A stretch of 64,000 bases of DNA from an uncultured Fibrobacterota bacterium. GTDB lineage: Bacteria; Fibrobacterota; Chitinivibrionia; Chitinivibrionales; FEN-1185. Made by a program: the position numbers and the translations under genes. Positions 531-48,680 of the stretch are shown piece by piece. The DNA is taken from contig CAVWBU010000023.1 of the NCBI GenBank assembly GCA_963753345.1, positions 25,987 through 89,986 on the forward strand. Direction: 5' to 3'. Position 1 is the stretch's first letter. Every line of letters begins with the position of its first letter. The notes under the pieces were generated by a model, which saw nothing but the letters and a program-made list of their open reading frames with translations, was not told the origin of the DNA and made no database searches.

Positions 531-693
531 ACCACTGCTCTCCATGGGTGCCCCCACGCCGGTGCTTGATTCTTGCAACAGCACTCTCAAGGGGTGCACC
601 CAGGAGGGGGTAGCGGAGGACCGGCCGCGGCCATTCAGAATACTGTCTTGAAAAGTGTCGCGGCCGGGCCGGAGCGAGGGGGAAACCTCCCCC
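531..693 (+). repeat. Structured intergenic element, module B (solo copy 1)
   Basis: ctctccatgggtgccccc...ggggtgcacccaggagggggtagcggagga, then a hairpin, then gccggagcgagggggaaacctccccc. Homologous copies at about 13582, 29191, 33614 and 37459. Confidence 0.85.
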
Positions 694-730
694 GCAAAAA
701 GTCACATCTTGATAAACCATAATTACAATC

Positions 731-13543: not shown

Positions 13544-13581
13544 TAGTGATTGACAAAATGATACTAATTAAGAATTCTGGT

Positions 13582-14081
13582 GGGGGAAGTATCCCCCTGG
13601 GGTGCAGCCTCCTCGGAAAGGTTTTGGTTTGTCTTGTTTGTCAACCTTTCCTGTGGGGTCTGCACCCACACCCCCTCCTGGGTAGCCGCCTTGATAAGGC
13701 AGTTGTAAGACCACACATTGTTGTGGCGGCACCGATGGAGAGTAGTTGAGAAGTTGAGGAGTTGAGAAGAAAACGCGTTGAAAAGTTGAAGAGTTGAAAC
13801 GTTGAATGGTTAAGAAGTTGACACATATACGGGTAGACGCATTAACGCGTTCACGTATGCGTGTTTTTAACACCGATTGGCGCGAAAAATGTAAATTGAC
13901 AGAATAGATTTCTTATGCCGCGCGTTAGGTGGACCGGAGGGTGCGTAAGAGCGAATTGCCGGCCGACCCGGCCGACAGGCATAGGGCGGTCCGGCAACGA
14001 GGCCGAATGGCCGAGCCCGGAGGGAGACCGACCCCTTGCAGAGTCGCACGACCGTGCGACTCCGCAAGGGGGAACGCCCAA
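13582..14081 (-). repeat. Composite structured element (module A 14081-13872, 8-mer tandem tract, module B 13748-13582)
   Basis: The reverse complement matches the composites at 28903 and 33370. Confidence 0.85.
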
Positions 14082-14091
14082 TTCTTTCTCA

Positions 14092-15591
14092 TCATTTTAA
14101 AACAGCAACCACACCCGAAACCACCATATTACCTAATTCGTACGTGACAACATACAACCCGTTCCTCACTCTTTCACCACGCAGATCTGAATAATCCCAG
14201 ATAAGAGCGGAAGACGATGATGAAAGAGAGCGCACCAGCCGTCCCTGCATCGAAAAGATGTTGATGCGAAAACCGGCAGACGAAACGCCGCGCATGCCGA
14301 TGATGCACCTGTTTGCCGACGCGTTCATCGTCATTGCCGGTTGAAGGTCTTTCAATCCCCCCTTGCCTGCATCAACAACCTTTGTCGCCGGCGGAGCGTA
14401 CACTTCGAACTCGAACATGGAATAGCCGAACCCGGAGAGGCGCTGGAGGCATCGGACGCGCACGAACCGCGCCTGGGTCTGGGCAATCTTGATCGGCCGC
14501 TTTTCCCAGCCTTTGCCGTCGGTGATGTGGGCGACGGTCGTCCAGCCGTCATCGTCGTCGGATGCCGCAAGGGCAATCTGCAGCAGGTATTCCTTTGCGC
14601 CCGAGTCTTCCCAGTTGAGAAAAACCGAGTCTACCGTGAAAACCGCTCCGAGGTCGACGTAGACCCACGCGGAGTCTTTGTTCGGGTCGTTCTTGTAATC
14701 GGTCCCCCACCTGGTCGAGGAGTCATCGTCGACCACGTTCGCGGCGACAAGGTCGCCGCCTTCGGCGCTTGTGCATTTTGCAAACTTCTTGCACGCGAGG
14801 TTGATTTTCGCTTTTTTGGAAAATGAAAGCGAGGCCCAATTGCTCGTGACGTTGCCGCACGGAGAGGAAACTGTGCACCGGAAAACGGCACCGCTGTCCA
14901 CCAACGTCGGCTTGAAGGCGTAATAGGCTGCCGTCGCCTGTGGAATATCATGGTACGTGGCGTCGATCAAGCCCATGCGCTGCCACTGAAACGACATGTC
15001 GGTCCCGTCTGCATCCACATAGAAGGAAGTGTTGAGCCCGGCCGTGTACGTCCGGTCGGCCGGGTCGGCGGCGATCACCGGCGGAACGCAGCCGGTATAA
15101 TTCCCGTACACCTCGAATTCCCATATCGAGTACGCGAAGATCGACGCGCGCTTGTATCCCTGCATGCGCACATAGCGCGCCTGGACAGGCACGAACGTGA
15201 TGGACCGCGTCTCGCCCTGGGTTCCGTCGGTGATGTGCGCCGCGGTGGTCCAGCCGCTGTCCGTTGCCGGAAGCGCGGTGGCGACCTGAATCGCGTAGTC
15301 CTGGCCGGCCGCAGTTTCCCAGTAGACAACAACAGAATCGACCGCGTACTGCACGCCCAGGTCAACGTAGATCCATTCGGAATCGGTGGTGAGGCTTTCC
15401 CACCGGTCGGTAAGAACGCCGTTGACGGCCTTTCCGGGCGGGTTGTCCTCGCCCACGCTGGAGGAAAAAACAGGGCGGTAGAGCGCGAGATTGGGTCGGC
15501 CGAAAACGTTTGAAACCAGCAATGTTGCCAGCAGGATGAAAAATGCGGACGTGACAATGCGGACATGATCAGGGAATGTAATCGATTTCAT
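14092..15591 (-). CDS. Secreted protein: two discoidin/F5-8 type C (CBM32-like) domains, an Ig domain and a T9SS-like tail
   Basis: NLALYRPVFSSS...WIYVDLG...ARYVRM...YSIWEFEVY occurs twice; tail IFSMQGRLVR...NGLYVV. Confidence 0.85.
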   Translation of the reverse strand: MKSITFPDHVRIVTSAFFILLATLLVSNVFGRPNLALYRPVFSSSVGEDNPPGKAVNGVLTDRWESLTTDSEWIYVDLGVQYAVDSVVVYWETAAGQDYAIQVATALPATDSGWTTAAHITDGTQGETRSITFVPVQARYVRMQGYKRASIFAYSIWEFEVYGNYTGCVPPVIAADPADRTYTAGLNTSFYVDADGTDMSFQWQRMGLIDATYHDIPQATAAYYAFKPTLVDSGAVFRCTVSSPCGNVTSNWASLSFSKKAKINLACKKFAKCTSAEGGDLVAANVVDDDSSTRWGTDYKNDPNKDSAWVYVDLGAVFTVDSVFLNWEDSGAKEYLLQIALAASDDDDGWTTVAHITDGKGWEKRPIKIAQTQARFVRVRCLQRLSGFGYSMFEFEVYAPPATKVVDAGKGGLKDLQPAMTMNASANRCIIGMRGVSSAGFRINIFSMQGRLVRSLSSSSSALIWDYSDLRGERVRNGLYVVTYELGNMVVSGVVAVLK

Positions 15592-15631
15592 GTCCCCCCC
15601 TTCCCGAAAAGCATGAAACCATTTTGCACTA

Positions 15632-15934
15632 TCAGGCGATCTTAATGCCGGTGGTCCGTATTTCCCTCTGAAATCCGACAACGTCCTTTCCGGCGATAAA
15701 AAGATGCGGCTCGATCAGAGCGTCTATTTCCCTTCGCGTCTTGAAGAGCTTTTTGAGCAAGGAAAAGTAGTCCTCAGTGAGCCCACTCGTAAAGATGCCG
15801 ATGTCGATATCACTGTCCGGGAAGGCGGTACCGCGCGCGCATGAGCCGAAAACCCATGCGCTTTCCACATCGACAATGCCGCGTATGGCCTCCACATACC
15901 GCTTGGCCTTCAGGATAATTTCATCTTTATCCAT
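15632..15934 (-). CDS. Minimal nucleotidyltransferase (MNT antitoxin-like)
   Basis: WVFGSCARG...DSDIDIGIF...IEPHLF. Confidence 0.85.
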   Translation of the reverse strand: MDKDEIILKAKRYVEAIRGIVDVESAWVFGSCARGTAFPDSDIDIGIFTSGLTEDYFSLLKKLFKTRREIDALIEPHLFIAGKDVVGFQREIRTTGIKIA

Positions 15935-16020
15935 GCGTAAAGCTCCTCCGTCTTTCCGAGCACCAATTTCGCATACGCTGCATCCATTTTCACGAGCAGT
16001 GCTTCTTTCATGACGGCCAT
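15910..16020 (-). pseudogene. Remnant C-terminus of a HEPN-domain gene
   Basis: Hand translation MAVMKEALLVKMDAAYAKLVLGKTEELYAWIKMKLS* overlaps the MNT start, as in HEPN-MNT pairs. The N-terminal part is absent. Confidence 0.55.
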
Positions 16021-16154
16021 CCTGTTGTTTGTCTAAAGATAAATCATGTAAACAAGGCAGCCTATCTCCAAGAAAGGTTACTGTCAAGGAAACCCCGGCC
16101 GGGTCAGATCATCCTTTCTCCGATCAAGAATACCCCCAGCACATGCGCAGTCGT

Positions 16155-16841
16155 TCACCTTGCCGCAGAATGGGGCGCACCATAGCTCTCCATTGCAAAC
16201 GGTTTCCCGTGCCCGGGATAAACCACTGTGACATTCATCTTGCTTAACCTGTCAAGGCTGCCGCGGAGCGCCGCTTCGTTTTCGATGATGTTCGCGCTGT
16301 CCGGTTTCTTCCTGTTGACAAAGGTGTCCCCTGCAAACAGGTCGCCCGAATCGGTCAGAATCCCGATCGAGCCGGGAGTGTGGCCGGGAAGATGGACAAT
16401 CCTCGCGTTCAAACCGTATTCCTTGAGGCTTTGTCCGTCGGAAAGCAGAATGTCCGGAGCAAATTTCGGAACGCTCACCCGTTTCCCCAGCAGGACCCTC
16501 ACCATCATCCTCACGGTAAAAAGCATCCTGTACGAAAACGGCCGCACCTTGCGTTTAAGGAACACGCCCTTCTCCACCTGGTTTACATCGCCGGAATGCA
16601 TCGCGATCTTCACCTTGTACTTGTCCCGAAGCCGCAGCGCGTTCCCCGTATGGTCCCCATCTCCATGGGTAATGAGCACCACCTTGAGACTGCCGGGCAC
16701 GCAGCCGGCCGACTGCAATTCCCTCTCCAGCATTTCCCCTTGAAAGGGCAAACCGGTGTCAATTATAACGTACCCGTCTCCGGCCTTAAGAAGATATGCA
16801 TTGACAAAACCCAATTCAATCACCCTGATGTCATTGTTCAT
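16155..16841 (-). CDS. MBL-fold metallo-hydrolase
   Basis: IDTG, THGDGDHTG, PGHTPGS, AGD and YPGHG. Confidence 0.92.
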   Translation of the reverse strand: MNNDIRVIELGFVNAYLLKAGDGYVIIDTGLPFQGEMLERELQSAGCVPGSLKVVLITHGDGDHTGNALRLRDKYKVKIAMHSGDVNQVEKGVFLKRKVRPFSYRMLFTVRMMVRVLLGKRVSVPKFAPDILLSDGQSLKEYGLNARIVHLPGHTPGSIGILTDSGDLFAGDTFVNRKKPDSANIIENEAALRGSLDRLSKMNVTVVYPGHGKPFAMESYGAPHSAAR

Positions 16842-16858
16842 ACCCTATTCCTCCTTGT

Positions 16859-18151
16859 TTACAAAGAATCGGTGACTTCTTCCGAACGTTCTATGCCCTC
16901 CTCCACCGCAATGGTGATTTCCCTTTCCGGCGCGGGCATGCTGTTTCCTGCCTGCCGGATGCCCCCTGAAAAAATGAAGGCGCCCAGAATGCACAGCGTG
17001 CCTCCCGCGAGAAAGGCATTCGGCGCGCCGATGGCCCCGGCAAGCACGCCCGCAAATAAATTGCCAAAGGGAGCCATCCCCAAAAAGGCCATTGCATAAA
17101 ATGCCATCACGCGGCCCCTTTTCCTGTCGTCCGCCAACACCTGAAGCAGCGTGTTGCTGGAGGCTATCTGGACCATCATCCCGCATCCGACAACAAGCAG
17201 CGCCAGCATGGAAAGCCAGAAACTTTTCGAAAACGAAACCGCGATGAGCCCGACCCCGAACAGCCCTGCCGCAAAAGGTATCAATTTCCAGACGTCATAA
17301 CTGTTTTTCCTTGACGCGAGGTACATCGCGCCGATCAACGCGCCCATTCCGGTGGCGCCAAAAAGGAAGCCGAGCGTATGAGGCCCCCCTCCGAGGACTG
17401 CCTTTGCAAACACGGGCATCAGCACCTGATACGACATTCCCAGGAGGCTCACCAGCGCCAAGAGCAGTATGGTGGACCGCATGGGGACCGATTTGTAAAT
17501 ATAGGCGAATCCTTCCGAGAAATCATGGATGATGCGCGGGTTTGCGGGCTCCCTTTTCCTCGGCGCGATGTTCATGGCAAGCAGGGCCACGATTATCATT
17601 GCATAGCTTGCGGCGTTGACGAAAAAGCAGACCCCTTCGCCCGCCGACGCGATGAGAATGCCCGTAATCGAAGGTCCCACCAGACGCGCGCCGTTCACCA
17701 TGGACGAATTAAGGGCGATCGCGTTGCCGAGGTCCTCCTTTTTTTCGATCATCTCGACGACAAATGATTGACGGGCGGTAACATCGAAGGCGTTGATTAT
17801 CCCCAGGCAGGCATTGAGGACAATGATCCACGGCACCGTGATTGCGCCGGTCACCACGAGGACAGCGAGGACAGCGGCCTGGATCATGGCAAGCGCCTGG
17901 GTAACGAGAAGAATGTTCCTCTTGTTCCACCGGTCGGCCAGTACTCCGCCGAGCGGTGAAAGAAGAAAGGAAGGTATCTGACTCACGAATCCGACAATGC
18001 CCAGCATGACCGCCGAATTGGTGAGCCGGTACACCAGCCAGGCGGTTGCCACGCGCTGCATCCAGGTGCCGATCAGCGACGTGCCCTGCCCGACAAAGAA
18101 CAGGCGATAATTCCTGTATTGTAAAGCTCTGAAGGTTGACTTGAGGGACAT
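16859..18151 (-). CDS. MFS transporter (MFS_3/DHA3-like)
   Basis: RNYRLFFVGQGTSLIGTWMQ, GGVLADRW and RGRVMAFY; about 12 TM segments. Confidence 0.92.
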   Translation of the reverse strand: MSLKSTFRALQYRNYRLFFVGQGTSLIGTWMQRVATAWLVYRLTNSAVMLGIVGFVSQIPSFLLSPLGGVLADRWNKRNILLVTQALAMIQAAVLAVLVVTGAITVPWIIVLNACLGIINAFDVTARQSFVVEMIEKKEDLGNAIALNSSMVNGARLVGPSITGILIASAGEGVCFFVNAASYAMIIVALLAMNIAPRKREPANPRIIHDFSEGFAYIYKSVPMRSTILLLALVSLLGMSYQVLMPVFAKAVLGGGPHTLGFLFGATGMGALIGAMYLASRKNSYDVWKLIPFAAGLFGVGLIAVSFSKSFWLSMLALLVVGCGMMVQIASSNTLLQVLADDRKRGRVMAFYAMAFLGMAPFGNLFAGVLAGAIGAPNAFLAGGTLCILGAFIFSGGIRQAGNSMPAPEREITIAVEEGIERSEEVTDSL

Positions 18152-18399
18152 AAGCAGGTACGGAAAAAGCCTTTGCGGGTTACCTTTGTGCTGACTCGAA
18201 AGATAATTCTTCCGCAACGACGCTGCGAAGGACGACTGTTCTGTTTTATCACAACAAGAGGACGCCGCACCAGCCGCCTTTCATCATGGTCTGGCAAGAA
18301 CCATGAAGATGGCAATGGTTGATAATTTGCAAATGAGCTTCGATCACGAACCAAACATAGGGATGAGGAGCTCCGCGCCAGAATCACGAGGTCGGTTTC

Positions 18400-18714
18400 T
18401 CAAGCTTCGATTCCCGCATATCTCACATTCCGGGAATTTGCAAAAACGCGAGGCCTTCTATTGATGGTTACCCCGTGCCTGGCCCTCACTTCCGCCTCGG
18501 CTCTCAACCAATCTTCCAGATCTTTTCCCGGCGTGCGATGGTGTTCGCAAAATATCTCATACGCCCGTTTCCGTATTTCGGCTCTCAGCAGCAGGCGTGC
18601 CGTCAATTCCTCGGCGCCAACGGCGACCGCGCTTCCCGCGGGCGAACCGCCTCGGCCCCACATAACCAGCGGCATTGCGTTGAGTTTTCTTCCGTTCGCC
18701 ATACGTTCCTCCAC
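18400..18714 (-). CDS. DUF2934 domain protein
   Basis: EIRKRAYEIF...GKDLEDWLRAEAEV. Confidence 0.8.
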   Translation of the reverse strand: MEERMANGRKLNAMPLVMWGRGGSPAGSAVAVGAEELTARLLLRAEIRKRAYEIFCEHHRTPGKDLEDWLRAEAEVRARHGVTINRRPRVFANSRNVRYAGIEA

Positions 18715-18792
18715 CTTTAATTCTCGACAACCCAGCCCTGTTCCCGGGATTTCCTTTTTCCTGATTATTAGACCGGAAGCGCTGTGTTCCCG

Positions 18793-19809
18793 TTACCGTA
18801 TACCGGCAAGAAGAGCGACTCGACGGGCGTATTCGTTGGGAAGGTGGTCGGGCAGGAGCTTCTTGTAGTCCTTGCTCTTGAGATTTTTCCAGATCGTTGC
18901 GGCGTACAGATAACCGTTCCTGAATTCGTTGTGGGTGAGGCTGTAGTCGTATCCGCCGGGAAGGTGAAGCACCACCTCATCGCCCAGGTGGCGGTAGATG
19001 CCATGCCACGACGGGTGGAGCGAATCCGCCGGGTTGCCCGACGCCGGCAGCGTGGGCGGAATAAAGGGGACCGGATCGTCGTCATTGACAAACCGTATAA
19101 CCGGAAGGCACCGGTACGCCACGACGGTTGACTCCGCAAGCACCTTCGGCTGGCCGAAGGTGTACACCGGCCCCAGAAAGAAACCGGCCTTCTGCAGGTG
19201 AATGGCAAGAAGCAAAGCGACGGCCCCGCCCAGCGAGTGGCCGGTGATGTAAAGCCGCGCGTGTGCGGCAATTTTTGAACGGATGAGGGGCTCAAGCCGC
19301 TCGGTGGCCTGCAGAAAGCCCCTGTGCACCCAGGCGCCGATTATCGGATCATACGCTTTGGGATAGTCAAAGTCCTGGATGACATTTTCGACGGAAAACG
19401 TGCCCCGGATGATTATCCACACACGGCCGCCGGCCGAGTCGAACCAGATGCACGCTTTGTTGCCGGCAAGATAGGGAACCGGCAAACTTCCCACGCTGTC
19501 GATCCAGACCGTTCCCAGCTGTTTGAGCGAATCGTTGCACAGATAAGAAAGCCAGGAAAGACGCGCGGCAAGGGCGGCTTCCCTGAAATTGACGGCCGGC
19601 ACGCCGGCGCTTGCGCTGTCGGCGCTGCACCAGCCTTGAGGAGCGCAAAAGGCCGAATCGGAAGGGCCCGGTGCGCATACGTCAATAATGCCGCCCGCGC
19701 CAAGCACGCAAACGCGAGGAGGAAGGGTTGCAACGCAGGCAAGACCAACCACGGCAATGGCGGGAAAGAGCCTGGCCGCACGACGGAAAATCGCGTTGGA
19801 GCAGATCAT
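18793..19809 (-). CDS. Secreted class 3 lipase
   Basis: IIIRGT, VHRGF, TGHSLGGA, YTFGQP, VNDDDPVP and DHLP. Confidence 0.88.
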   Translation of the reverse strand: MICSNAIFRRAARLFPAIAVVGLACVATLPPRVCVLGAGGIIDVCAPGPSDSAFCAPQGWCSADSASAGVPAVNFREAALAARLSWLSYLCNDSLKQLGTVWIDSVGSLPVPYLAGNKACIWFDSAGGRVWIIIRGTFSVENVIQDFDYPKAYDPIIGAWVHRGFLQATERLEPLIRSKIAAHARLYITGHSLGGAVALLLAIHLQKAGFFLGPVYTFGQPKVLAESTVVAYRCLPVIRFVNDDDPVPFIPPTLPASGNPADSLHPSWHGIYRHLGDEVVLHLPGGYDYSLTHNEFRNGYLYAATIWKNLKSKDYKKLLPDHLPNEYARRVALLAGIR

Positions 19810-19958
19810 CGTTCCGCCATTTCCTGGAAATCCATCAAGGCCGGAGGGAACAGGATTAATGATACATAATAAATTCGGCCGAAGCAATCATTAATCCGCG
19901 AGGGATTTCACTCCTCGCCTCGCCTCTCCCCGGATACTCCGGGTTCGGCTTCTCCAAT

Positions 19959-19988
19959 TTGACAAAAACCCCGGATAAACCTTATATT
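19959..19988 (+). promoter_or_regulatory. sigma70-type promoter with conserved spacer
   Basis: TTGACA-aaaaccccggataaacct-TATATT (18-nt spacer). Confidence 0.6.
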
Positions 19989-20326
19989 CTCATGAGTGGC
20001 GGGTGGCTGGAAAGGGTTGAGAGGTTGAGACGGCCGACGGACAGAGGGTTAGGAGTCAAACTGGATTCGTGATTTCATTCCTCCCTTTCCCACAAATCGG
20101 AATACCTGCACGGTTGTAAGAGCAAGCCTGAAGAGGCAAAAGTCCGGACGCTCGGCAATACCGCCGGAGCCGGCAACGCGGCAATTCCTTGCGCAGCCGT
20201 TAGTTCCGTTTTCGCACTATCTGCCGCAACAAGAAGGCTGTTCCCTTTTCAATCCTTTGCAGAGGACCGGGAATGCTTATTGCTCTCGTACTTGGAATGG
20301 CCTGGTTCAAATAGATGGGGGTTTGC

Positions 20327-23300
20327 ATGTGTCCTAAAGAAACCAAGATCATTGTTTCTTCACTTCTCGTCGTAATCATCGGCCTTCTCTTCTTTTGTGA
20401 AAGAAACAATCCTTACGACCCGAACTCCAAATCGTTTGTTCCCGGGAAAAAGCCCCATGTCGCTTTCGCAAACAAGACCATGTCCGCTTATCTTCTTGAC
20501 ACAATTTCTATCCCGGTTGTCTGGTCCGACACTGCCGTCGGCGGGGTAAAGGGGGCCATCAAGAAATTTTACATCGACTGGCACGGCGACACGCTCTTTA
20601 ACGACAGCGTCGCCGGGACCGCGGCCGACACCCTGGTGCTCAGAAAAGCATTCCCGGTGGAAACCGTAACGGTGCGGATCAGGGCGCTCGATTACGACGG
20701 CAATTACAGCGATGCCGACAGCATGAAGCTGTCCGTGCTTTCGAGCAGGCCAAGAATAGTGATCTCCGGCGGTTCCCGAACCGTCCGTAAAGCGGCCGTA
20801 TGCACGCTGTCGGTTTCGGCAACCGACACGGGCGGCAAGATACAATCCTTTCTCTGGGCAAAAAACGGCGCGGATTTCAACGACACCACCTTTGCTGGAT
20901 CATTTCAGGTTTCGTACAGCGACACTGGCGCGAAGATCGTTCTTGTCAAGGCCCGCGACAACAAGGGCGTCGAGTCCGGCGTTGACACGTTTCATATTAC
21001 TGTGTTCGACAAACGCGGCGCGGTGTTGTATGACGGAAATGGAAATACCGGCGGCATTGTTCCGACCGACACCAATATCTACGTTGCCGGACAACCGGTA
21101 ATTGTGCTCGGCAATACGGGGAATCTCGAAAAATCTGGATATGTTTTCTCAGGGTGGAACACCCTTTCCACGGGCAGCGGCGCAAATTATTCCCCCGGCG
21201 CCACGTTTTCGATGGATACCGTAAGTGCGATCCTGTATGCACAATGGACAGCAAACCCGACGTTTACTGTTGTCTATAATAGTAATGGCAGTACTGGCGG
21301 TACCGTTCCTGCCGACACCGTGCACTATTCACTGGGTCAAAGCGTCACGGTGCTCGCGAATACAGGCTCTCTTGACAAGTCAGGAAATGCCTTTGTCGGC
21401 TGGAACACGGAAGCAAACGGCACCGGCATCGGCTATGCGGCGGGCGTGTCCTTTTTCATGGGATCCGCCAATGTAACGCTGTACGCGCAATGGACCGCCG
21501 ACCCGACCTACACGGTGACGTATGACGGCAACGGCAACTCAGGCGGCACTGCTCCCGTGGACAACAACAACTATCTGTCCGGCGCGGCCGTGAAAGTCCT
21601 CGGCAATGCCAACGGTCTTGTCAAAACGGGAAACACCTTCATCGGATGGAACACCAAGCCCGACGGCAGCGGGACTGCCTATGCATCGGAGGTCTCGTTT
21701 ACCATGGGCTCCGCGAGCGTGACCTTATTCGCGCAATGGACCGCGCTCCCGACGTACACGGTCACCTATAACGGTAACCTCAGCACGGGCGGGACCGCGC
21801 CGACAGACGCCAACAGCTATATGCAGGGCCAGACCGTAACGGCGCGCGGCGCCGGCACGCTGGTCAAAACCGGCTCCACCTTTGCAGGCTGGAACACGAA
21901 GATCGACGGCACAGGGATCGGCTATGCGGCCGGGGCTACGTTTGCCATGGGAACCGCCAACATTACCCTGTATGCGCAGTGGACGGTTATTCCGACATAC
22001 ACCGTCACCTACAACGGCAACAACAATACCTCCGGGACAGTGCCTGCGGACAATAATCATTATACGTTCGGACAGCCGGTGACGGTGCTTGCCAACACCG
22101 GGAATCTCGCGAAAACAGGCGCAACTTTCGTGGGGTGGAACACGCAGGCCAACGGCAGCGGCACCGGCTACGCGGCTGCGGTGTCCTTTGTCATGGGTTC
22201 AGCCAATGTTACCTTGTATGCGCAATGGACCGCAAATCCAACCTACACCGTGACCTATCGGGGGAATACCAACTCGGGCGGCACCGTTCCTGTGGACTGT
22301 AAACAACTATCTGTCCGGCGCGACCGTTACCGTGCTCGGCAATACCGGCGGGCTTGTCAAAGCAGGAAATACCTTTGTCGGATGGAACACGCAGGCCGAC
22401 GGCAGCGGCACGACCTATGCATCACAGGCCACGTTTGTCATGGGCTCAGCCAACATAACATTGTATGCGCGGTGGACCGCGCTCCCGACGTACACCGTCA
22501 CCTATGACGGCAACGTCAACACGGGCGGTACCGCGCCGGTGGACGCCAACAGCTACCTGCAGGGGCAGACCGTGACAACGCGCGGGGCAGGCACGCTGGT
22601 CAAAACAGGTTATACCTTTACAGGCTGGAACACGAAGGCCAACGGAAGCGGGACCGCCTATGCGGCAGGAGTGACGTTTGCCATGGGCGCAGCCAACGAT
22701 ACGCTGCATGCCCAGTGGGCGCTTGTCCCCACCTATGGCGTCGCCTATAACGGCAACACCAATACCACAGGGGCCGCACCCGCGGACAATAACCGTTATA
22801 CGGTCGGACAATCTGTCATCGCGCTCGGCAACACCGGGAACCTTGCAAAACCGGGCTACACATTCGTCGGCTGGAACACGCAGGCCAACGACAGCGGCAT
22901 CGGTTACGCGACCGGAGTGTCCTTTTTCATGGGTTCCTCCAATGTGACCTTATACGCTCAATGGACCCAGCTCCCAACCTACACGGTCACCTACGACGGC
23001 AACGGCAGCACGGGCGGGAGCGTCCCTCTGGATGGCAATAACTATCTGTCGGGCGCGACGGTGACGGTGCCCGACAATCCCGGCGGACTTGTCAAAACAG
23101 GAAACACCTTTATCGGCTGGAACACAAAGACGGACGGCAGCGGTACGACCTATACATCACTTGCCACCTTTACAATGGGTTCCGCCAACATAACGCTGTA
23201 CGCGCGGTGGACCTCCAACCCGACCTACAAAGTGACCTACGATGGCAACGGCAGCTTGGGCGGGACAGCACCGGCCGACGCCAACAGCTACCTGCAGGGC

Positions 23301-26083
23301 CAGACCGTGACAACGCTGAGCGCCGGGTCACTGGCCAGACCAAGATTACTATACTTTACAGGGTGGAACACTCAGGCAAACGGCGAAGGACTTGGCTACG
23401 GGGTCGGCGTCACGTTTGCCATGCCCTCCAATAACGTGACGCTGTTCGCTCAGTGGACCGGCATTCCCACGTATACGGTCACCTATAACGGCAACGGTAA
23501 TAATGCCGGCACAGCACCTACAGACAACAATCGCTATGCAGCCGGACAGCCGGTAATTGCACTCGGCTACGGCAGTCTTGTGGATTCGGGCTACACATTC
23601 GTGGGATGGAACACGAAGTCCAACGGCACCGGTATCGTGTACGCGGCCGGAGTCTCATTTGTCATGGACACCGCCAATGTGACGCTCTACGCGCAATGGA
23701 CCGCGCTCCCGACCTACACCGTCACCTATGACGGCAACGGAGGTACAGGAACTCCCCCTTCAGACGGAAACCACTATCTGTCCGGCGCGATTGTGACCGT
23801 GCTCGGCAACACCGGCGGGCTTGTCAAAACAGGAAATACCTTTGTTGGCTGGAACACGAAGACTGACGGCACCGGCTTGAGCTACACATCACCGGGCACG
23901 TTTACAATGGGTTCCGCCAACGTAACGCTGTATGCACGGTGGACATCCAACCCAACGTACAGAGTGACCTACGAGGGGAACGGCAGTTCGGGCGGGACCA
24001 CGCCGGCGGACTCCAACAGGTATTTGCAGGGCCAGACCGTGGTTGTGCTCGCCAACACCGGCGTGCTTGTGAAAACCGGCTTTACTTTTGCGGGCTGGGA
24101 CACCAATGCCCTCGGCAGCGGGACTGTCTATGCCCCGGGAGCCTCGTTTATCATGGGAACTGCCAATGTGACGTTGCACGCGCAGTGGGCGGCGATTCCG
24201 AAATACACGGTCACCTATAACAGGACCACCGCCAACAGCGGTATCGGGACTGTTCCTGTGGATACAAATCATTACATGTTCGGACAATTGGTGACCGTGC
24301 TCGGCGACACCGGCGGGCTTGTGAAAACAGGTTCTACCTTCGTCGGGTGGAACACACAGGCAGGTGGCGGCGGCATCGGGTACGCGGCGGGAGTGTCATT
24401 TGTCATGGGTTCTGCCAACGATACACTCTACGCGCAATGGAGTGCCCTCCCGACCTACACCGTCACTTATAACGGTAATACGAACACAAGCGGAAACGCG
24501 CCGGTGGACCCCAACAATTATCTGTCCGGTACGAGCGTGACAGTGCTCGGCAGCAACACACTTGTCAAGACCGGATACACGTTCGTTGGCTGGGATACCA
24601 TTGCCAACGGCGGCGGGAATGTCATAGGAACCTCGTTTACCATGAAATCCATCAACGTGACATTGTACGCGCAATGGACCGCAAACCAGACGTATTCCGT
24701 CACTTACTTCGGCAACGACAGCACGGGCGGCACTGTTCCGGTTGACAAGAACAACTATCTATCCGGCGCGACGTGACCGTGCTCGCCAACACAGGCGGTC
24801 TTGTCAGAACAGGAAATACGTTCATTGGCTGGAACACGCAAGCCAGACGGCAGCGGGACATGCCTATGCCCCAGGAGACACGTTTACCATAACGTCCGCC
24901 AAGCTGCCGTATGCGCAGTGGACCGCGCTTCCCACCTGTACGGTCACCTATTCGGAAACGGCAACACGAGCGCGAATGTGCCGTCAGATGCAAGTCACTA
25001 TTTTCGGAACAACTGTGCCGATTCCGGGTAATGCGGAGGCCCTGCACAGAACCGGCGATAAATTGCGGATGGGATGCCATGTGCACGTCGATGGTGGTCG
25101 ACAGTCTTAGGATCCGTCGTTTACTATGGATCAGCCAACGTGACACACAAATCACACAATAGCGGCGACCTTTGCACTCACGTACATGCACCATGATGGC
25201 AACGACTGCAGCAGGCGGCACTATTCCGCGAGGAGGGAACACGATTAATCCGGTTCAACAGATGACAACGTATACCATTACCGCCGCTCCGCATTATCAT
25301 ATTGTGGCCGTTGTTGTAACTGGAACACGCAGAAAGATGGCAAGGGGACACTCCTACTCGTCCCGGAGACATTTTAGAAATGGGTACCAGTAATGTAACG
25401 TTATACGCCATCTGCGTCTTCACCATCACGCAACGGCCTGTTTAACCCGGGTCAATATCCCCGTCCGGAGCAGTGACTCGATACCGGGAGCGGATCAAAC
25501 TTTTCTATGACACCCGGTCCCAATTATCATGTCGATAGTGTTTATGTCAATGGATCACCAGTAACTCCAGCCTTGACGTACACATTCACGGTGTTTCGGG
25601 CAACTCCACCATTTCCGCAACGTTTGTGATCAACACGTACACGATTTCATTTGATCCAAGCGGCGCAACCGGATCGATGGCTGATCAAACCATAACAAGC
25701 GGATCATCGGCAAGTCTTGCGGCGAACGTATTTACCAAAGCAGGATGGACTTTTGCGGGATGGGCAACCACTGCCGGTGGAGCAGTAGCTTATTCCGAAA
25801 TGGCGCAAGCTACACCATGGGCACATCAAATGTGACGCTGTATGCAGTATGGACAGCCACCGTTACCTTTGATGACCAGGGCGCTACCGTACTGGAAAGT
25901 CCAGCAGCGATAAGTGTTACATCGCCGGCAACAACAGTCGGTACGTTACCAACCTCGCCCTCAAAAGACCTCTATAATTTTAATGGTTGGTATACGGAGG
26001 TGAATGGCGGAGGATCGTCATTTACCGCAAGTACCACGGTTACTGGTAGTATTACTGTGTATGCCTATTGGACACTGCAATGA
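20327..26083 (+). CDS. Giant surface lipoprotein with about 20 InlB B-repeat (Listeria-Bacteroides repeat) domains; interrupted by frameshifts
   Basis: Lipoprotein signal LLFFC-ERNNPYDP, PKD-like domains, then repeats YTVTYDGN...P.D...Y..G..V...F.GWNT...G..Y...F.MG..NVTLYAQW. Frameshifts at about 22300 and 24772, and many between 24800 and 25800. Confidence 0.8.
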
Positions 26084-26106
26084 GTTTTAAGGAATAGAAG
26101 TATCTC

Positions 26107-27996: not shown

Positions 27997-28025
27997 CCGG
28001 GGTTGACAAAGGCTATTCGCGGCGC

Positions 28026-28754
28026 CTAGAACGAAAACGCGACACGAGCGCCGTTGGGTTGCAGTACAAGTGAAACCTTGTGCGGCGCGGGTTCCTTTTT
28101 GGCAAGCAATACGATGGAAACGGGGACAAGGACGGCCGCGACTCCAGCGGTGATGCCACCGCCGATATACAGATTGCGGTACTCGTTGTAGTAATAATTG
28201 AAGTTCGCGCCCGGACCGGTAAGCGCATTGTATTTCTGCATGTCCTGGTAACCGAAATAAAAACAATTTGCGCTCACGCCTGCCGAAACAATCCCGCACA
28301 CAAGCAGGGTTACCGGAAGAGCGACGCTTTTCTTCTGGACCTGAACGATGACCGTCGGTTTCTTCTTGATGACGGTGTCCATGGTCGCAAGCGTCTTTTC
28401 CAGTTTGGCCTGTTTGAAGACAATGGCGATGGTCGGCTGCACTTCGAGCGTGTCGATATCCATTCCCGGGAATTTATCAAGCGCTGTTCTAAAGGCCGCC
28501 TTTGCCTGGTCGACCCGGTTGAGCATGGCAAGAGAGAAACCGTAGTACTTGTATCCTTCCCGCTGGTCGGTCCCGGACAGGAGCGGCAGGAGCACGGCAC
28601 AACTGTCGGCCGCCTTTTTATAGTCGCCGTCCTTGAAACTTGCTATGGCCTTTTCAAGACGGCCATGGCTTTCGGCATTCTGAGCGTGCACGCTTTGCAT
28701 GCCTGCCTGAATTGACAGGAAGAAAAACGCCGACACGATTACAATTTCACGCAT
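28026..28754 (-). CDS. Secreted TPR protein with a hydrophobic C-terminal region and terminal beta-strand
   Basis: Signal peptide; YKYYGFSLAMLNRVDQAKAAFRTAL; ends VSLVLQPNGARVAFSF. Confidence 0.75.
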   Translation of the reverse strand: MREIVIVSAFFFLSIQAGMQSVHAQNAESHGRLEKAIASFKDGDYKKAADSCAVLLPLLSGTDQREGYKYYGFSLAMLNRVDQAKAAFRTALDKFPGMDIDTLEVQPTIAIVFKQAKLEKTLATMDTVIKKKPTVIVQVQKKSVALPVTLLVCGIVSAGVSANCFYFGYQDMQKYNALTGPGANFNYYYNEYRNLYIGGGITAGVAAVLVPVSIVLLAKKEPAPHKVSLVLQPNGARVAFSF

Positions 28755-28817
28755 ACCTGTTCTCGATTCTGCTGATGCATCACTTTGGACGGGAAATACC
28801 GAACCGCCGCCCTTCTG

Positions 28818-28846
28818 AAAATAAGGTTTTCCGGGGAAACAGTCAA
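28818..28846 (-). promoter_or_regulatory. sigma70-type promoter with conserved spacer
   Basis: TTGACT-gtttccccggaaaacct-TATTTT (17-nt spacer) upstream of the TPR gene. Confidence 0.6.
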
Positions 28847-28902
28847 CTTTTGACAAATGAATGAGATGGGCGCCCCGCTATTTTTGTTTTAAAACTTAGA
28901 AT

Positions 28903-29343
28903 TTGGGCGTTCCCCTCCCCCTCGACAAAGCTCGGGGTCGCGTCGGTCTCCTTCCGGGCTCGGCTATTCGCCTCGTTGCCGGACCGCCCCGAGTCGCCTT
29001 CGGCGAGGAGTCGGCCGGCAATTCGCTTTAGCTCACCCTCCAGTCCACCTAACGCGCGGCAGAGGGATTCTATTCAGTCAAGAGTTTCTTCTCTCGCCAA
29101 TCGGTATCCCAAGCAAATCAATCAAGACTTCTTCTTTGATTTTTCAACTCTTCAATCTTTCAACCATTCAACGTTTCAACTTTTTCTTTGCCACTGCTCT
29201 CCTTGGGTGCCCCCCAACCGAAGCAGCTTTCTTGCAAGTAAACTTACTTTGGGGCCACCCAGGAGGGGGTAGCAGAGGACGCCGAAGGCGGCCGGAGCGA
29301 GGGGGACGACCCTTGGAAGTACCCGACGGGGTAAACCTCCCCC
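28903..29343 (+). repeat. Composite structured element (A 28903-29105, ttcaac tract, B 29191-29343)
   Basis: ttgggcgttcccc...ccacctaacgcgcggca...cgccaatcggt, then the ttcaac repeats, then module B. Confidence 0.85.
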
Positions 29344-29480
29344 ACTATATTCTGGTCTATTGCATCATCTATTATCATTGACAATAAAAACAGTATATTA
29401 TCGGCAGAGCCCCTTCGGACCCATCACCGTCTCTTGTTCGGCGTCATCATAACCTCCACCTCATTCCCTTGGGGGACCCG

Positions 29481-32112
29481 ATGCACCTGTCACGCTTTCC
29501 CCTGTCAACCATCGTCGCGACGCTCCTAGCCACATTCATTTCCCCGCACCAAGCCGGTGCAACGCATCCGTCAATCTTCTTCTCTGCTCAGCGACGTTGC
29601 AGGCATCCGGACAAAGGCAACCACCACGCACGCCGCCATCATGCAGCCGATAGTCTCCTGTGCAAACTCACTGCTGCCGCTTCCCGTGCCCACGGCGCCA
29701 ACGGGCGCGGCTTCTTCCGATTTGAGCCTGGATTCCCGGGACGTGACAGTGCTCGCTTTCGCCTATGTCGCGACCGGCGACAGCCGCTACCTGGCCCTGG
29801 CGCGGCAGTACCTCGCCGCGTTCGCCGCGTGGCCGGTCTGGGGCGCGGACGCCACGCTCGGAGACCGGGACCTTTCGCTCGGGTACATGTTGCGGGGCTG
29901 CGCCATGGCCTACGACTGGCTGTACGACAGCCTGGCGGCCGCCGACCGCGCCGCAATGCGAAGCGCATTAGTCAAGCACAGTCAGGAGATGTACGAAGCG
30001 GCTTCCGGGCCTTACAATGCCGCATGGGGAAACTGGTGGCCGGAATCCTACGGCCAGAACCACTGGGACAACAACAACACGGCGCTGGGAATCGCGGCCC
30101 TGGTTCTCAGCGGGGAATGCGACAGCAGCACACTATGGCTCACGCATGTGATTGCCGAAATGCGAAAAGACAGCTTCGACCTCGCAAACATCGGCGACGG
30201 CACATGGCACGAAGGATGTCTGTACCAGGACTCAAAGCTCACCGCTACCATGCCGTTCTATTTCAATCTCAAGCGCCTCAGGAACATCGATTTGTATCCG
30301 CACAATTACCTGTCGCAGTTTGCGCTGTTCGCTCTGTACAATTATCTGCCGCTCGACCGGCAGATGGCCCTGGACTTCTCAAGCTACATTGACGACTGGG
30401 GCGGGTGGCTCTCCGCAGCCGGATATTCGCTGCTCGCGCTTGCCGGATCGGAATGCGGGTCCGGCTACGGTCAGTGGCTCTGGAACAAAATGGGAACCGA
30501 CCTCGGCCGCAGCTCGTACCAGGCCGGAAACCATGTGCCGGAGTTCTTCTACTATTCGCCTTCCGCACTGTCAACTGCGCCGACCGGCCTGCCGCTGTAC
30601 AGGACATTCACCGACCTCCAGGGCGTCATCTGGCGCACGGGCTGGGGCGACAGCGACCTTACGTTCGGGCTCAAGACCGGCGCCTACGGCGGAACGTTCC
30701 TTTACAATCAGTACCTGTCGAAAAAATATCCTTTCGACACGGCCGGCGCAAACCTCAACGTGGGCCACAACCATGCCGACGCAAACACGTTCTGGCTGTA
30801 CCGCGGCAACGTCACCCTGATCGGCGAGAACGAGGGCCGCAGCCTGTATAACGACCTCGGCACCGCGTACCAGTCCTCGTCGCACAACACGCTCCTTGTT
30901 GACGGCAGGGGACAGTATTTCCCCACAAACCAGACCGGCGTCTACGCGGACAACGACGGCAGCCTGAAGACCGTCTGCGATGTTGCGGGATACGACTTTG
31001 TTGAGTCCGATGCGTCAAAGAGATGCCGGGCAACAAACACCGACGGTTCCATGGGGCCGCTCATGGTTTCCCTTTTCGTAAGAAATGTCCTGTTTGTAAG
31101 GCCTTCGTATTTCATCATCGTCGACAATGTTGCGGACAGCACCGCCCATGCCTACGAACTGCGGTTCCATTGCGCGGATTCGGCAATCATCGACACCACG
31201 GGTGGATGGGCGCGCGCGTCGAGTTCCGGCGGCAACGTGCTCGGCATAAAAACGCTCTCCCCAGTGCCGTTCGCGTACGACACGGTTGATTCCGCGAAGC
31301 CGGCCGTGCTGATTAGGCCGCCGCAGGCCGTGAAACGCGCGGACTTTGTCCATGTTCTCTACCCTACGCAGGCTTCCACATGGTCGGCCAGGCCGCAATT
31401 CTCTCTTGTCAACCAGACCCTGTCGGCCACCGTTGTCCATGTGAGCGGCAGTGGAACGTTCGACCACATCATCCGCCATGCGGACGCGGCCGACACCGTC
31501 ACCGCCGGGAATTACGTGATCGACGGCAACGCGGCGAGCGTCGGCAGGACGGCCGACGGAAGCGTGAAAGACCTTTTCCTGGCCGCGGGCACCTTCGTGG
31601 CCGACAGCGCCGGCCGCAGGCCTCTTTTGCAAAGCGCCGCAGGCGTGAACGCCGTGCACGCATCCATAACCGACACCGCGGTGACGGTGTGGCTCGACGA
31701 CAAAAGCGCGCTCAACCTCAGGCTCTACGCCCCGCAGGCGACGCCGTCGATGGTGCGCGTGCCGGGACGGAACGCCTCCGCCTCCGCCGCGAACGGGTAC
31801 CTCACCATCACCGAAACCATGCGCGTCGCTCCGGGCAATGCCGTGCGTTCGGGCGGCCCGGCCGCCGCATTCTCTTTTGACAAGAGACACGGAGTGGTTC
31901 GCATCCTGTCTGCACGGCCGGGCAACGTGACGGTGCGCCTGTACCGTCTCGACGGAAAATGCGTGTGGAAAAGCGGCGAAACGGCTGCGGGTCCCGGACA
32001 AAGCATCTCGGTGCCGATCGACCTGCGACGCAGGGGGCATGCCACGTACATCGTGCGCGTTGAGATCAACGGCGCTGTGGCCGGGCAGTCGCTGGTGCAG
32101 CTGGCGGAGTAA
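29481..32112 (+). CDS. DUF4962/heparinase II/III-like polysaccharide lyase or epimerase with a T9SS-like tail; one frameshift near 29590
   Basis: The signal peptide and HPSIFFSA are in one frame and continue as SDVAGIRTKA in the next. Motifs QNHW, WHEG..Y, GHNHADANTF and HNTLLVDG. Confidence 0.82.
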
Positions 32113-32226
32113 CGGCGGGGAACGCGGTTTGTCAATTGAAGAACCCCGTTGACCCATCGCTCCCGCAATACTACACTTTTCGTGGGTACTCGTTTGCCCG
32201 CATACCCTTTTCCGGGGAAAGCCGTT

Positions 32227-33348
32227 ATGATTCCAGCGATGCTTTGTGTCGTGCTTGCGCTGGTGCCGCAGCTTCACGCGGCAGGAGCGACAAAGACGGC
32301 ACCGCGGCAGAAACCCGCCCCCTTCGTTTCCCTCATGGGCGCATCCGCCTGGAAATTGACAAAAGCATACCGGTCAATCGAACCCTGGAAATGCACCGAC
32401 AGCCTTTTCGAGCCCAGCGACGGCTGGATCGCCACCGACGCGGTGTGGGGCGATTTCGTGCTCGAAGGCGAGTTCCTGTACAATGGAAAGAGCGAGGGAG
32501 GGGTGCTGGTACGCGGCGACAAAGAAGCATGGATTCCCTGGCTTCACGGATATAAAATGGACATCGACGCGGATATGCCCGGCACCGGCCACATCCACTT
32601 CCCCTTCCGGCCGCAGCCGAACCCCGGCGTGGTCCAGTTTCCCGTTGATGTGTGGCAGCATTTTTCCATCCGCGCGGCCGGGCAGGTCATATCGGTAAAG
32701 CTTGACGGAAAAGAAGTCATCAAGTTCCGCGACGACCACTACCGGTACGGCTCCATCTGCCTGGAAGGCGAAAAGGGCGGATTGCGATACCGGAATTTGC
32801 GCGTCCAGAGGCAAGACATTACAACTCCGGCTGGCCCGCGCTCGCCCTACACCGAGCTTTTCGACTCGGCCGCGCCGCCGGGGATGAAGACCGAGGGCGC
32901 TGTTTCGTTTGCAAACGGCGTCGTGGAAATCGACGGCAGCGCCCGGCCCGCCTCGGTCCGGTTCCCGCAGGCCGTTGTTGCGGGCGCGGTGGAGCTTGAC
33001 GTCTGGTGCAAGCGGCGCCAGGGGTCAATGGCGCCCTACCGGATCGGCTTTCTTGCCGGAGCTCCCGGTTCCGGCCCCTGCTTTACGTGCAGGAACAACC
33101 GCGTCCAGCCGTGCGCGACCGGGCAATGCACGTCCCTGTTTCCCATGTTCATGGAGACCACCTGCGCGGAAACGTGGCGGTTTGAGATCACCCGCAGGAG
33201 CATCGACGCGATCCGGTTCGGCGAAAAGGTTATGTCGTGCTCAGACATCGTCCCGAAGGGTTCGACGCTCTGCGTCTCCGCCGACTCGTGCGTGTTGCTG
33301 CTGAGAGGAGCGAGAATGATGGCAAGGAGTTCGGTGATTTCCAAATAG
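32227..33348 (+). CDS. DUF1080 (3-keto-glycoside hydrolase-like) domain protein
   Basis: WGDFVLEGEF...EGGVLVR...WQHFSIRA...GSICLEGE...LRYRNLRV. Confidence 0.75.
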   Translation: MIPAMLCVVLALVPQLHAAGATKTAPRQKPAPFVSLMGASAWKLTKAYRSIEPWKCTDSLFEPSDGWIATDAVWGDFVLEGEFLYNGKSEGGVLVRGDKEAWIPWLHGYKMDIDADMPGTGHIHFPFRPQPNPGVVQFPVDVWQHFSIRAAGQVISVKLDGKEVIKFRDDHYRYGSICLEGEKGGLRYRNLRVQRQDITTPAGPRSPYTELFDSAAPPGMKTEGAVSFANGVVEIDGSARPASVRFPQAVVAGAVELDVWCKRRQGSMAPYRIGFLAGAPGSGPCFTCRNNRVQPCATGQCTSLFPMFMETTCAETWRFEITRRSIDAIRFGEKVMSCSDIVPKGSTLCVSADSCVLLLRGARMMARSSVISK

Positions 33349-33369
33349 AGACGACGATAGTATACATAC

Positions 33370-33774
33370 TTGGGTGCCCCGCCGCTTTGCGGCGGCGGCC
33401 GTCCTTCCGGTCTCGGCCTCCGGCCTCGGGCCGCCACGGCCCTATGGCCCACAGGGCCGGGTCCGGGCGGCATCCCGCTCTAGCAGAACCTCCAGTCCTG
33501 CCTGGCGCGCGGCAACCGAATTTTCTTCAGTCATTTACTTTTTCTCGCGCCAATCTGTATCAAATTAAATCAGGCAAGGCTTTTTTTGTTGGAACTTCTC
33601 AACCTCTTCTTTTCAACAACTCTCCTTGGGTGCCCCCCAACTACAGCTTTACACTTGCAACTACTCCAACTTGGGGGCCACCCATGAGGGGGTAGCGGAG
33701 GAACGGCGCGCGGTTGACATTGTGATATCACCGGGGAGAGCGCGCCGGGCCGGAGCGAGGGGAATACTTCCCCC
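33370..33774 (+). repeat. Composite structured element (A 33370-33558, B 33614-33774), diverged copy
   Basis: ttgggtg...ccttccggtctcggc...cctccagtcc..ctggcgcgcggca...cgcgccaatctgt, then module B. Confidence 0.8.
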
Positions 33775-33894
33775 ACATGCAACCTCTATTGCTTGCCAAA
33801 AATCATCATCCTGAAATTTATGGACTAAGCCCTGTTCCGCAGCGTATCTTTCTGAGGAGAAAAAATCCCCCGAAAGAACCCGTATCTGCTATCA

Positions 33895-35232: not shown

Positions 35233-35405
35233 AGAGCGCGGGAAAAAATGTGAGCGTTGCCCCCTCCTTGACCTTTGCCATAACCATTAAAATAAATCGG
35301 ACGGATAGCCAGCCGCATGTTCAACAGCCATCTGTAAAACTGTGCGCCACGATCTTTCCCCGATCGTGTACCGTCCGCAAAGATCGCTGTTGAGGACTAC
35401 ACTAC

Positions 35406-37241: not shown

Positions 37242-37458
37242 CCAGGTGAAATCCGGCGGAAGGATTTGACCGTACGGGTGGACAGTCGGGTGTGTGACAA
37301 CTATCTGTTAATCCCTGTGCCACGATCATCCTTGATCGTGCAGCGTCCGTAAAGGGTCCAGTCGAGGACGACGGTGGCACATAATTTGTTATTTTAGGTT
37401 TTGAAAGGCACCGGTGTGACATAGTGATAAAGTCACAAAGTAGCAGTAAGTGCATGGT

Positions 37459-37590
37459 ACCACTGCTCTCCATGGGTGCCCCCGCAGCAGAGCATGGTTT
37501 CGTAACTACTCTCTCTAGGGGTGCACCCAGGAGGAGGTAGCGAAAGACCGGCCGCAGGCCGGGCTGAAGCGAGGGGGAGACTTCCCCCTC
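37459..37590 (+). repeat. Structured intergenic element, module B (solo copy 2)
   Basis: Shares module B and an upstream flank (aaagt.acaaag.ag.agtaagtgcat.gtaccactg) with the copy at 531. Confidence 0.85.
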
Positions 37591-37601
37591 CAAGTGAATT
37601 T

Positions 37602-46107: not shown

Positions 46108-46150
46108 GAAGATACCCCTGAACGGAAAAGGTGATACGCGGTTAAATAAT

Positions 46151-46190
46151 CCCACAGCACGCTTTGAGGAACGCGCTCGCTGTGGGATTC
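46151..46190. repeat. Intergenic hairpin (cccacagc...gcgctcgctgtggg)
   Basis: Homologous to 48641-48679 and to the end of the 56031 element. Confidence 0.65.
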
Positions 46191-46194
46191 GTCA

Positions 46195-48679: not shown

Positions 48680-48680
48680 C

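Follow-up and report, generated by a model that had tools for sequence, protein, structure and literature searches.

The BOX elements of Streptococcus pneumoniae appear, by architecture, to be the closest described counterpart of the repeats analyzed here, two hairpin-rich modules termed A and B that stand head to tail at three places in a 64,000-nt window of an uncultured Fibrobacterota genome (assembly G000, contig C23; window, G000:C23:25987-89986); this comparison implies no kinship with the boxA, boxB or boxC sequences. The parts of a BOX element keep a fixed order, with a 5′ module first, short units in a variable tandem array next and a 3′ module last; the element is predicted to be strongly base-paired when transcribed, lies in intergenic DNA and is sometimes inserted into another copy; the elements are abundant only in close relatives, their mobiliser is unknown, and they were judged parasitic and now largely dormant (PMC3049150). 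BOX-type elements with larger end modules, of 115 and 133 nt, are reported there for S. suis (PMC3049150).

The elements of the window share with BOX the order and orientation of A, a variable heptamer array and B (200 A>B> arrangements against 1 in reverse) as well as an intergenic position, a structured sequence and an abundance limited to one clade. They differ in that their modules are larger (~210 and 150 nt), their middle units are 7-nt repeats instead of tandem boxB modules, and A may be paired with an inverted A in place of B; moreover, the host phylum is another one, and the core of B is found phylum-wide, whereas BOX is nearly confined to two species. An earlier note, made from the letters of the window, had named the composite its best candidate for an undescribed system. 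This holds insofar as neither an Rfam family nor a mobiliser was found, yet the kind of element is known, since BOX has the same three-part layout (PMC3049150). Repeats of this type turned up in none of the literature searches directed at the host lineage; these searches were limited, with supplementary catalogues outside their scope and a part of them aimed at the PVC group.

Two other groups of small repeats invite comparison. REP units are 20-40 nt long, and REPINs go with RAYT transposases. Like REPs, BIMEs and REPINs, the elements studied here are intergenic palindromic units that form mosaics with fixed relative orientations in hundreds of copies, lie near gene 3′ ends and occur in inverted pairs, comparable to A> A<; unlike REPs, the modules measure 135-220 nt and contain several helices, and neither a RAYT nor a Y1 transposase gene was found in G000. 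MITEs, the miniature inverted-repeat transposable elements, are defined in the same source as AT-rich elements with terminal inverted repeats and target-site duplications (PMC3049150). With MITEs such as Correia/NIME, ERIC and RUP the present elements have in common that they are small, non-coding, dispersed and strongly structured; MITEs can affect transcripts in an orientation-dependent manner, as the present elements probably do (PMC3049150, in part). They are, however, GC-rich, without detected duplications and only loosely similar at their two ends, and no insertion sequence (IS) with matching ends was found in the assembly.

Taken together, we consider it fairly probable (about 0.6) that A and B form a BOX-like, selfish or neutral modular repeat family that is copied via a folded single strand. 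Two lines of evidence carry this reading. Orthologous sites show no conservation, modules appear, vanish or replace one another between sister species, and the burst of copies is clade-limited, which argues for selfish or neutral repeats and against host elements needed at each place; and the maintained helices, the wobble pairs on one strand and the invariant unpaired motifs argue that a folded single strand is recognized by some factor.

Modules A and B in the window and the genome

Element coordinates were taken from the nhmmer model and then refined by multiple alignments. Module A is ~200-220 nt long and module B ~135-165 nt, so that A, linker and B make a composite of 350-500 nt, and reading of the sequence gave an identical order at all three composites: module A, a short tail, an array of TCAAC-type heptamers and module B. 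At its 5′ start module A has a G-run/C-run motif, GGGCGTTCCCC, followed by several hairpins and by conserved unpaired stretches such as CCTAACGCGCGGCA, while module B carries the motif CCCAGGAGGGGGTAGCG and ends, at its 3′ terminus, in a G5/C5 hairpin. The copies in the window are as follows.

13864-14084, minus strand: module A of copy 1 (nhmmer match 13865-14081, model positions 1-210, 158 bits; alignment row), with, from 5′ to 3′, the G-run/C-run, a long variable hairpin H1, a small H2, a long bipartite H3, H4, a conserved unpaired stretch and the 3′ strand that closes P1
13748-13863, minus strand: linker of copy 1, the A tail followed by tandem TCAAC-type heptamers (sequence read)
13578-13747, minus strand: module B of copy 1 (nhmmer match 13586-13746; alignment row), whose parts are the long P0+P1 stem, a G-run, the long P2 hairpin, which is variable, and the terminal G5/C5 hairpin P3
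28900-29113, plus strand: module A of copy 2 (nhmmer 28903-29112, 184 bits; covariance model R2, 220.9 bits at G000:C23:54886-55099)
29114-29192, plus strand: linker of copy 2, made up of the A tail and heptamers of the TCAAC type (sequence read)
29193-29347, plus strand: module B of copy 2 (nhmmer 29193-29340, model positions 2-162), with a ~27-nt mini-insert in the P3 loop at ~29307-29333
33367-33566, plus strand: module A of copy 3 (nhmmer 33390-33563; alignment row), a second subtype with other H1 and H3 sequences and unchanged architecture
33567-33614, plus strand: linker of copy 3 (sequence read)
33615-33778, plus strand: module B of copy 3 (nhmmer 33616-33770; covariance model R1, 127.3 bits at G000:C23:59601-59764)
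533-697, plus strand: solo module B (nhmmer 534-689; alignment row), with a piece of B's 5′ end and ACAAAGT-type heptamers in front of it at ~470-532
37461-37592, plus strand: solo module B (nhmmer 37462-37585; alignment row), with a similar heptamer flank at ~37405-37460

The three A-before-B composites described in the earlier note were thus all found in place, and the different 5′ flank that it had ascribed to the two solo B copies proved to consist of the ACAAAGT-type heptamers and a shared motif of ~18 nt. Both solo copies were also recovered by a window-wide repeat search. The neighbours of the elements in the window are mutually unrelated and include an ammonium transporter, an F5/8 type C domain protein, a heparinase-like protein, a SpoIIE phosphatase and a TPR protein, among others.

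Three rounds of nhmmer on G000 (4.52 Mb in 55 contigs, 94.3% complete, contamination estimate 4.8%) yielded 419 copies of A and 286 of B, which bears out the many copies per genome that had been expected from the window. Together the repeats cover 135,375 bp, that is, 3.00% of G000 and 17.2% of its non-coding DNA (defined as lying outside crude open reading frame (ORF) calls), at a density of one module per 6-7 kb. For 214 of the 419 A copies a same-strand B follows within 500 nt downstream (gap 21-325 nt, median 65), 204 have no B within that distance and 1 is otherwise arranged; conversely, 208 of the 286 B copies have a same-strand A upstream, with 77 lacking A and 1 in another arrangement. 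The 449 clusters comprise 200 A>B>, 132 solo A, 73 solo B, 27 convergent A> A<, 6 A>A>B> and 11 others, and the reverse order, A<B>, was found once among them. The linkage predicted from the three composites is therefore far above chance co-occurrence, with 214 A followed by B and one A arranged otherwise. A single obligate multi-domain unit, which had also been suggested, is not what these counts describe: A and B also occur alone and in other combinations, B may be present or absent beside an orthologous A, and the taxonomic ranges of the two modules differ. The composite may spread as one piece, or one module may insert next to the other. A and B are two separate non-coding interspersed repeat families with separate histories, here usually joined head to tail.

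Among the copies in G000, the median nearest-neighbour identity is 92% for A and 86% for B, and the 30 A and 15 B copies with identities of at least 99% are probably, at least in part, duplicates on redundant small contigs. Truncation of B at its 5′ side is almost absent (275 of 286 copies begin within the first 20 model positions); a retroelement origin (group II intron, retron, SINE-like) would call for such truncated copies and for a reverse transcriptase gene, to which G000 gave no match. Arrays of at least three TCAAC units were found 176 times genome-wide, all of them outside the A and B models.

Several smaller repeats accompany the modules. The exact pattern of the ~27-nt mini-insert, which sits in hairpin loops, occurs 66 times in the genome, 16 of these outside A and B; inside A it is always opposite to A (39/39) and inside B always in the same orientation as B (11/11), and in some other genera the only BLAST matches of the composite are short matches to this insert. 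A further small intergenic module, a hairpin unit bounded by AGATTGCTTCG and CTCGCAATGACA, has 20-26 copies in G000, ACAAAGT-type heptamer arrays number 20, and a CCTCACCCC...GGGAGAGGGG hairpin was noticed by eye in the intergenic DNA. Two repeat sets of the window lie in coding regions. About 16 tandem units of 243-252 nt at 21088-24951 encode Listeria-Bacteroides repeat domains, where the long ORFs 20315-22507 and 22332-24776 overlap in different frames, which suggests one giant repeat protein split by a frameshift or an assembly error. At 44962-48755 is the second set, with 264-nt tandem units at 45206-45984 and a longer segment recopied 2.5-3.0 kb away (families D6, D9, D13 and D15).

Helices, wobble pairs and the folding strand

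Column covariation was computed from 404 rows for A and 278 for B, all of them distinct. At nhmmer match columns, covarying helices were detected in A at model positions 72-79/112-119, 83-87/104-108 and 119-123/128-132, and in B at 19-22/58-61 plus the terminal hairpin. The full model of A has eight helices, with a closing P1 plus H1, P5, H2, the bipartite H3 and H4. When its 36 proposed pairs were evaluated in 25 copies, 91.9% of the cells were paired compared with 83.7% in shuffled data, and none of 500 shuffles reached the observed value; pairs changed on both sides numbered 17 against 9.4 expected, and partner-slid controls gave 32-54% pairing. The early impression that the hairpins stay paired while their sequences differ is thus corroborated, by the shuffles and by the column covariation alike. 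For B, RNAalifold returned the long P0+P1 stem and the terminal hairpin, with double changes in 6 of 19 pairs. Folded as RNA, module A of copy 3 reaches −88.2 kcal/mol (z = −3.04), and module B of the same copy forms P0/P1, P2 and P3 (z = −1.89). The core of B contains two G-runs, each of which is able to pair with the one terminal C-run, in mutually exclusive pairings. Searches for known structured RNAs gave no assignment: Rfam 15 at the gathering threshold had no match in the window or in 22 related loci, an E-value search of copy 2 gave only three chance-level matches (E 1-7.7), and ARAGORN detected no tRNA or tmRNA in the window.

Within the fixed helices, G:T pairs greatly outnumber A:C pairs, at 640:87 in A and 791:49 in B, and the excess persists at 283:78 (A) and 133:39 (B) when the two most wobble-rich helices are left out. 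This indicates that the folding strand is the A-to-B strand, as RNA or as single-stranded DNA. Such tolerance of G:T but not of A:C would be unexpected if the palindromes acted as duplex sites of a host protein, that is, as BIME-like binding or extrusion sites for gyrase, IHF or other nucleoid proteins. A duplex role would agree with the strictly intergenic position on 17% of the non-coding DNA, with the likeness of convergent A/A pairs to inverted REP pairs and with the tandem heptamer arrays, which could serve as iterated binding sites; on the other hand, orthologous sequences are not conserved, and the expansion is limited to a clade whereas nucleoid proteins are general. We rank this explanation last and consider it highly improbable.

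A folded strand could also be moved as such. Non-autonomous derivatives of single-strand transposons (of the IS200/IS605 type, a REPIN/RAYT system or a relic of a TnpB/IscB guide RNA), mobilized by an HUH Y1 transposase, would account for hairpin-rich ends devoid of terminal inverted repeats and target duplications, for the strand-specific folding, and for the association between element strand and local GC skew, which is weak but significant (plus copies, 107 in positive and 68 in negative skew; minus copies, 140 and 43; Fisher p = 0.002). The skew bias is, however, only 57-61%, and its direction is opposite to that of IS608; the modules are 5-10 times the length of a REP, HEARO and related Rfam models had no match in the window, and matches to PF01797 and PF07282 were lacking in the 94%-complete assembly with positive controls. 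Thus, an origin from such transposons seems very unlikely.

Turnover between species and taxonomic range

To follow the fate of individual copies we used the sister species G001, from which 23 contigs (131,838 nt) with genes ~87-93% identical to those of G000 were compared. The arrangement is kept at many sites, including the A+B ortholog of window copy 2 (L002). Across 39 long alignments the identities between the two species were 79.2% for A, 80.5% for B and 77.7% for the linker, compared with 83.7% at third codon positions and 87.1% in other intergenic DNA; orthologous copies therefore change at a rate no lower than that of third codon positions.

Whole modules also differ between the species. 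At G000:C35:139386-139585, B with a short leader stands beside an A that G001 has alone, and both flanks align cleanly. Another site has a full A>B> in G001 and no element in G000, with the intergenic DNA unalignable and the borders unreadable, and a third has A>B> in G001 and B only in G000, the two differing in their upstream filler. At the site of window copy 3, A>B> in G000 corresponds to A> A< in G001, and at G000:C15:66870-67270 one species again has A>B> and the other A> A<; in these swaps the outer termini coincide, and the 3′ tip of B is kept after the inverted A. Orthologous A copies may even differ by whole helix subtypes. Among eight orthologous A pairs, 35 of 136 helix pairs were changed, of which 13 were changed on both sides and remained paired, 9 were changed on one side and remained paired, and 13 no longer paired in one or both copies. 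So many double compensatory changes in eight ortholog pairs are best explained by exchange between copies and not by site-by-site selection. At the TPR-gene upstream site (window 35354-35400 against L133:2322-2834 in G001), the solo B of G001 is flanked by two copies of a ~190-nt leader, of which the window has one.

Only in five species of one genus (G000, G001, G002, G004 and G005) has the family expanded on a large scale. BLAST with copy 2 gave hundreds of first-look candidates in the four species other than G000 and one weak match in G003, a distant congener whose shared protein is 47% identical, as against 62-71% for G002, G004 and G005 and 96% (partial match) for G001; outside the genus only short matches were obtained, and 11 of 31 genomes had any match. 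The DNA runs containing the window stem from peat, freshwater-sediment and soil metagenomes. Covariance models, the E-values of which are rough, revealed wider and unequal ranges. B (model R1) was detected in 34 of 81 genomes of the order, and its core in 74 of 151 genomes of a phylum sample, typically with 1-14 scored matches each; one family of a different order had R1 matches in 46 of 55 genomes, and one genome of this well-sampled family encodes 'Fibrobacter succinogenes major domain' proteins, which suggests Fibrobacterota as the phylum. Alignments spanning families and orders show hardly any variation in the 3′ half of B, while the 5′ stem and the long middle hairpin are variable. A (model R2) was found in 13 of 81 genomes of the order and in 10 of 151 of the phylum sample, and outside the five species it has 1-9 copies, with a convergent A> A< pair at one locus and, at another, a lone A lying between genes.

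A near-invariant core spread over a phylum does not fit a simple parasite, and a bolder reading is kept for this reason, as an unlikely one. The B core (~100 nt) might be the recognition module of an undescribed host-encoded or lineage-conserved mobilization or RNA system, with A as a horizontally patchy partner or cargo, and the composite would then be a non-autonomous unit copied as a folded single strand by an enzyme outside the transposase and reverse-transcriptase families searched.

Gene context, element ends and the search for a mobiliser

The gene calls, which are crude ORF calls, were redone after repeat masking for the analysis of context. The composites occupy all four contexts (orientation of the upstream/downstream gene relative to the element; n = 193), namely same/opposite 50, opposite/same 44, same/same 33 and opposite/opposite 66. 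Between co-directional genes, composites were underrepresented in sense (33 sense, 66 antisense, p = 0.0012), as were solo B copies (11 and 30, p = 0.004), and solo A copies showed no significant bias (35 and 29). The 3′ end of B faces a gene 3′ end more often than a 5′ end (116 vs 77 for composites, 48 vs 22 for solo B), with a median distance to the gene 3′ end of 32-35 nt. This B-linked bias suggests a harmful effect of B on transcripts that run through it in sense, and B in that orientation probably affects transcripts. Terminator-like sites were absent from 28700-29600 and 33200-34000, and no promoter-like site was found inside copies 2 or 3, the three promoter-like matches near copy 2 lying in its flanks. 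The elements do not conform to an intrinsic terminator, having ~8 mixed bases between the terminal hairpin and the T-rich sequence; in other families T-rich sequence follows the terminal B hairpin.

These observations bear on whether the host maintains the elements as functional structured RNAs, which might act in cis as terminators, insulators or transcript stabilisers at gene ends, or, for the B core, represent an amplified small RNA gene. Judged from sequence patterns, such a role would be consistent with the wobble asymmetry and covariation of the top strand, the wide occurrence of the B core with its near-invariant 3′ half, the orientation bias of B with its 3′ hairpin close to gene 3′ ends, and the T-rich sequence behind the terminal hairpin in other families. 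It is at odds with copies that change at or above the third-codon-position rate and with modules gained, lost and swapped between sister species, with the lack of promoter-like or terminator-like sites inside copies 2 and 3, with an upstream same-strand gene able to read into only 83 of 193 composites, and with a several-hundred-fold copy number limited to one clade. We therefore hold a maintained function to be doubtful, though it is the alternative that we take most seriously.

Under the BOX-like reading, proliferation would have taken place in the common ancestor of the five species, with the repeats persisting as selfish or neutral DNA. A single-stranded intermediate may serve in their copying or reshuffling, with its fold and its invariant unpaired motifs recognized by a putative trans-acting factor, and recombination between copies would yield the mosaics. 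As a side effect, the strong structure of a transcribed B strand may terminate or destabilize the transcript, so that B in sense between co-directional genes would then be counterselected.

The flanks of the elements are purine-rich on the 5′ side and T-rich on the 3′ side, and since the flanks of A> A< pairs are mutually inverted repeats, A really extends ~12 nt upstream of its G-run. Target-site duplications were not found in 18 A/A pairs or 43 solo B copies; the tests cover k of at least 4, and duplications of 2-3 bp would have escaped them.

A number of observations weigh against the BOX-like reading. Mobility is something we infer: the comparison with G001 gave no site that lacked a whole composite and whose flanks could be aligned, and metagenome contigs from four DNA runs end at the repeats, none spanning an empty site (the read depth of repeat bins in these runs is ~30 times that of the flanks). 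No target-site duplication was evident in 158 anchored composites (k = 4-8, all offsets), where the best result was 8 with 4-mers against 2.49 expected, and there are no clear terminal inverted repeats, the 5′ G-run/C-run and the 3′ G5/C5 hairpin being only loosely alike. G000 gave no match to the Y1 transposase (PF01797; the control was positive in 6 of 14 reference genomes), the TnpB zinc-ribbon (PF07282; control genomes gave matches) or reverse transcriptase (PF00078), an absence that, with an assembly ~94% complete, is not proof. An autonomous parent with an ORF between A and B was sought among the 12 widely spaced A...B pairs (0.4-9 kb apart), and the six ORFs scanned, from 5 of these pairs, were ordinary genes, none of them a transposase. 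Whole-module energies conflict as to strand: the top strand gives the more stable fold of B in 217 of 239 copies, and the reverse complement that of A in 172 of 211. The covariation and wobble counts are not independent events, since the copies share ancestry. Finally, the near-invariant 3′ half of B and its phylum-wide core are unusual for a purely parasitic repeat and point to a conserved partner or function.

Several candidate mobilisers in the genome were set aside. An IS5-like element of ~0.9 kb has ends unrelated to A and B, which also speaks against the BOX-like reading; it occurs in three identical copies (G000:C18:84641-85048, C32:215672-216079 and C49:51509-51916), with 18-nt terminal inverted repeats and a short flanking repeat. 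The single IS110-family gene and the single rve gene of G000 adjoin neither module, and the GIY-YIG gene beside the solo B at 533-697, which 12 of 13 relatives carry as a conserved single copy, the element-poor G003 among them, is not a candidate. Multi-copy proteins considered as IS elements turned out to be assembly redundancy. Small contigs (C44/C45/C46, C10/C39/C43, C3/C17 and others) repeat stretches of larger contigs with at least 80% protein identity, which fits strain redundancy in the assembly. A search of four genomes found no general link with HNH genes: in one Fibrobacter-like genome a B-like copy is located ~100-130 nt away from 2 of the 3 HNH-domain ORFs, the arrangements being mirrored (L209:14952-16106; G125:C1:281062-281477), two others had 0 of 4 HNH hits near B-like copies, and the fourth had no HNH match. 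The sole HNH gene in G000 (C34:35174-35341) is not among the A positions listed on C34. The composite had no match in plasmid and phage collections.

If the BOX-like reading holds, few interspersed repeat families of bacterial genomes would match A and B in density and in elaborateness of structure, and the building, exchange and tolerance of modular repeats could be followed here as in a natural experiment. In practical terms, they break short-read assemblies and generate spurious ORFs, and they probably shape transcript ends. Should the B core instead be a recognition module, it would represent a hitherto undescribed class of mobile element that depends on structure, or a novel functional RNA of wide occurrence. 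The neutral decay at each site, set against a near-invariant B core across the phylum, makes the identity of the factor that would recognize the fold a testable matter.

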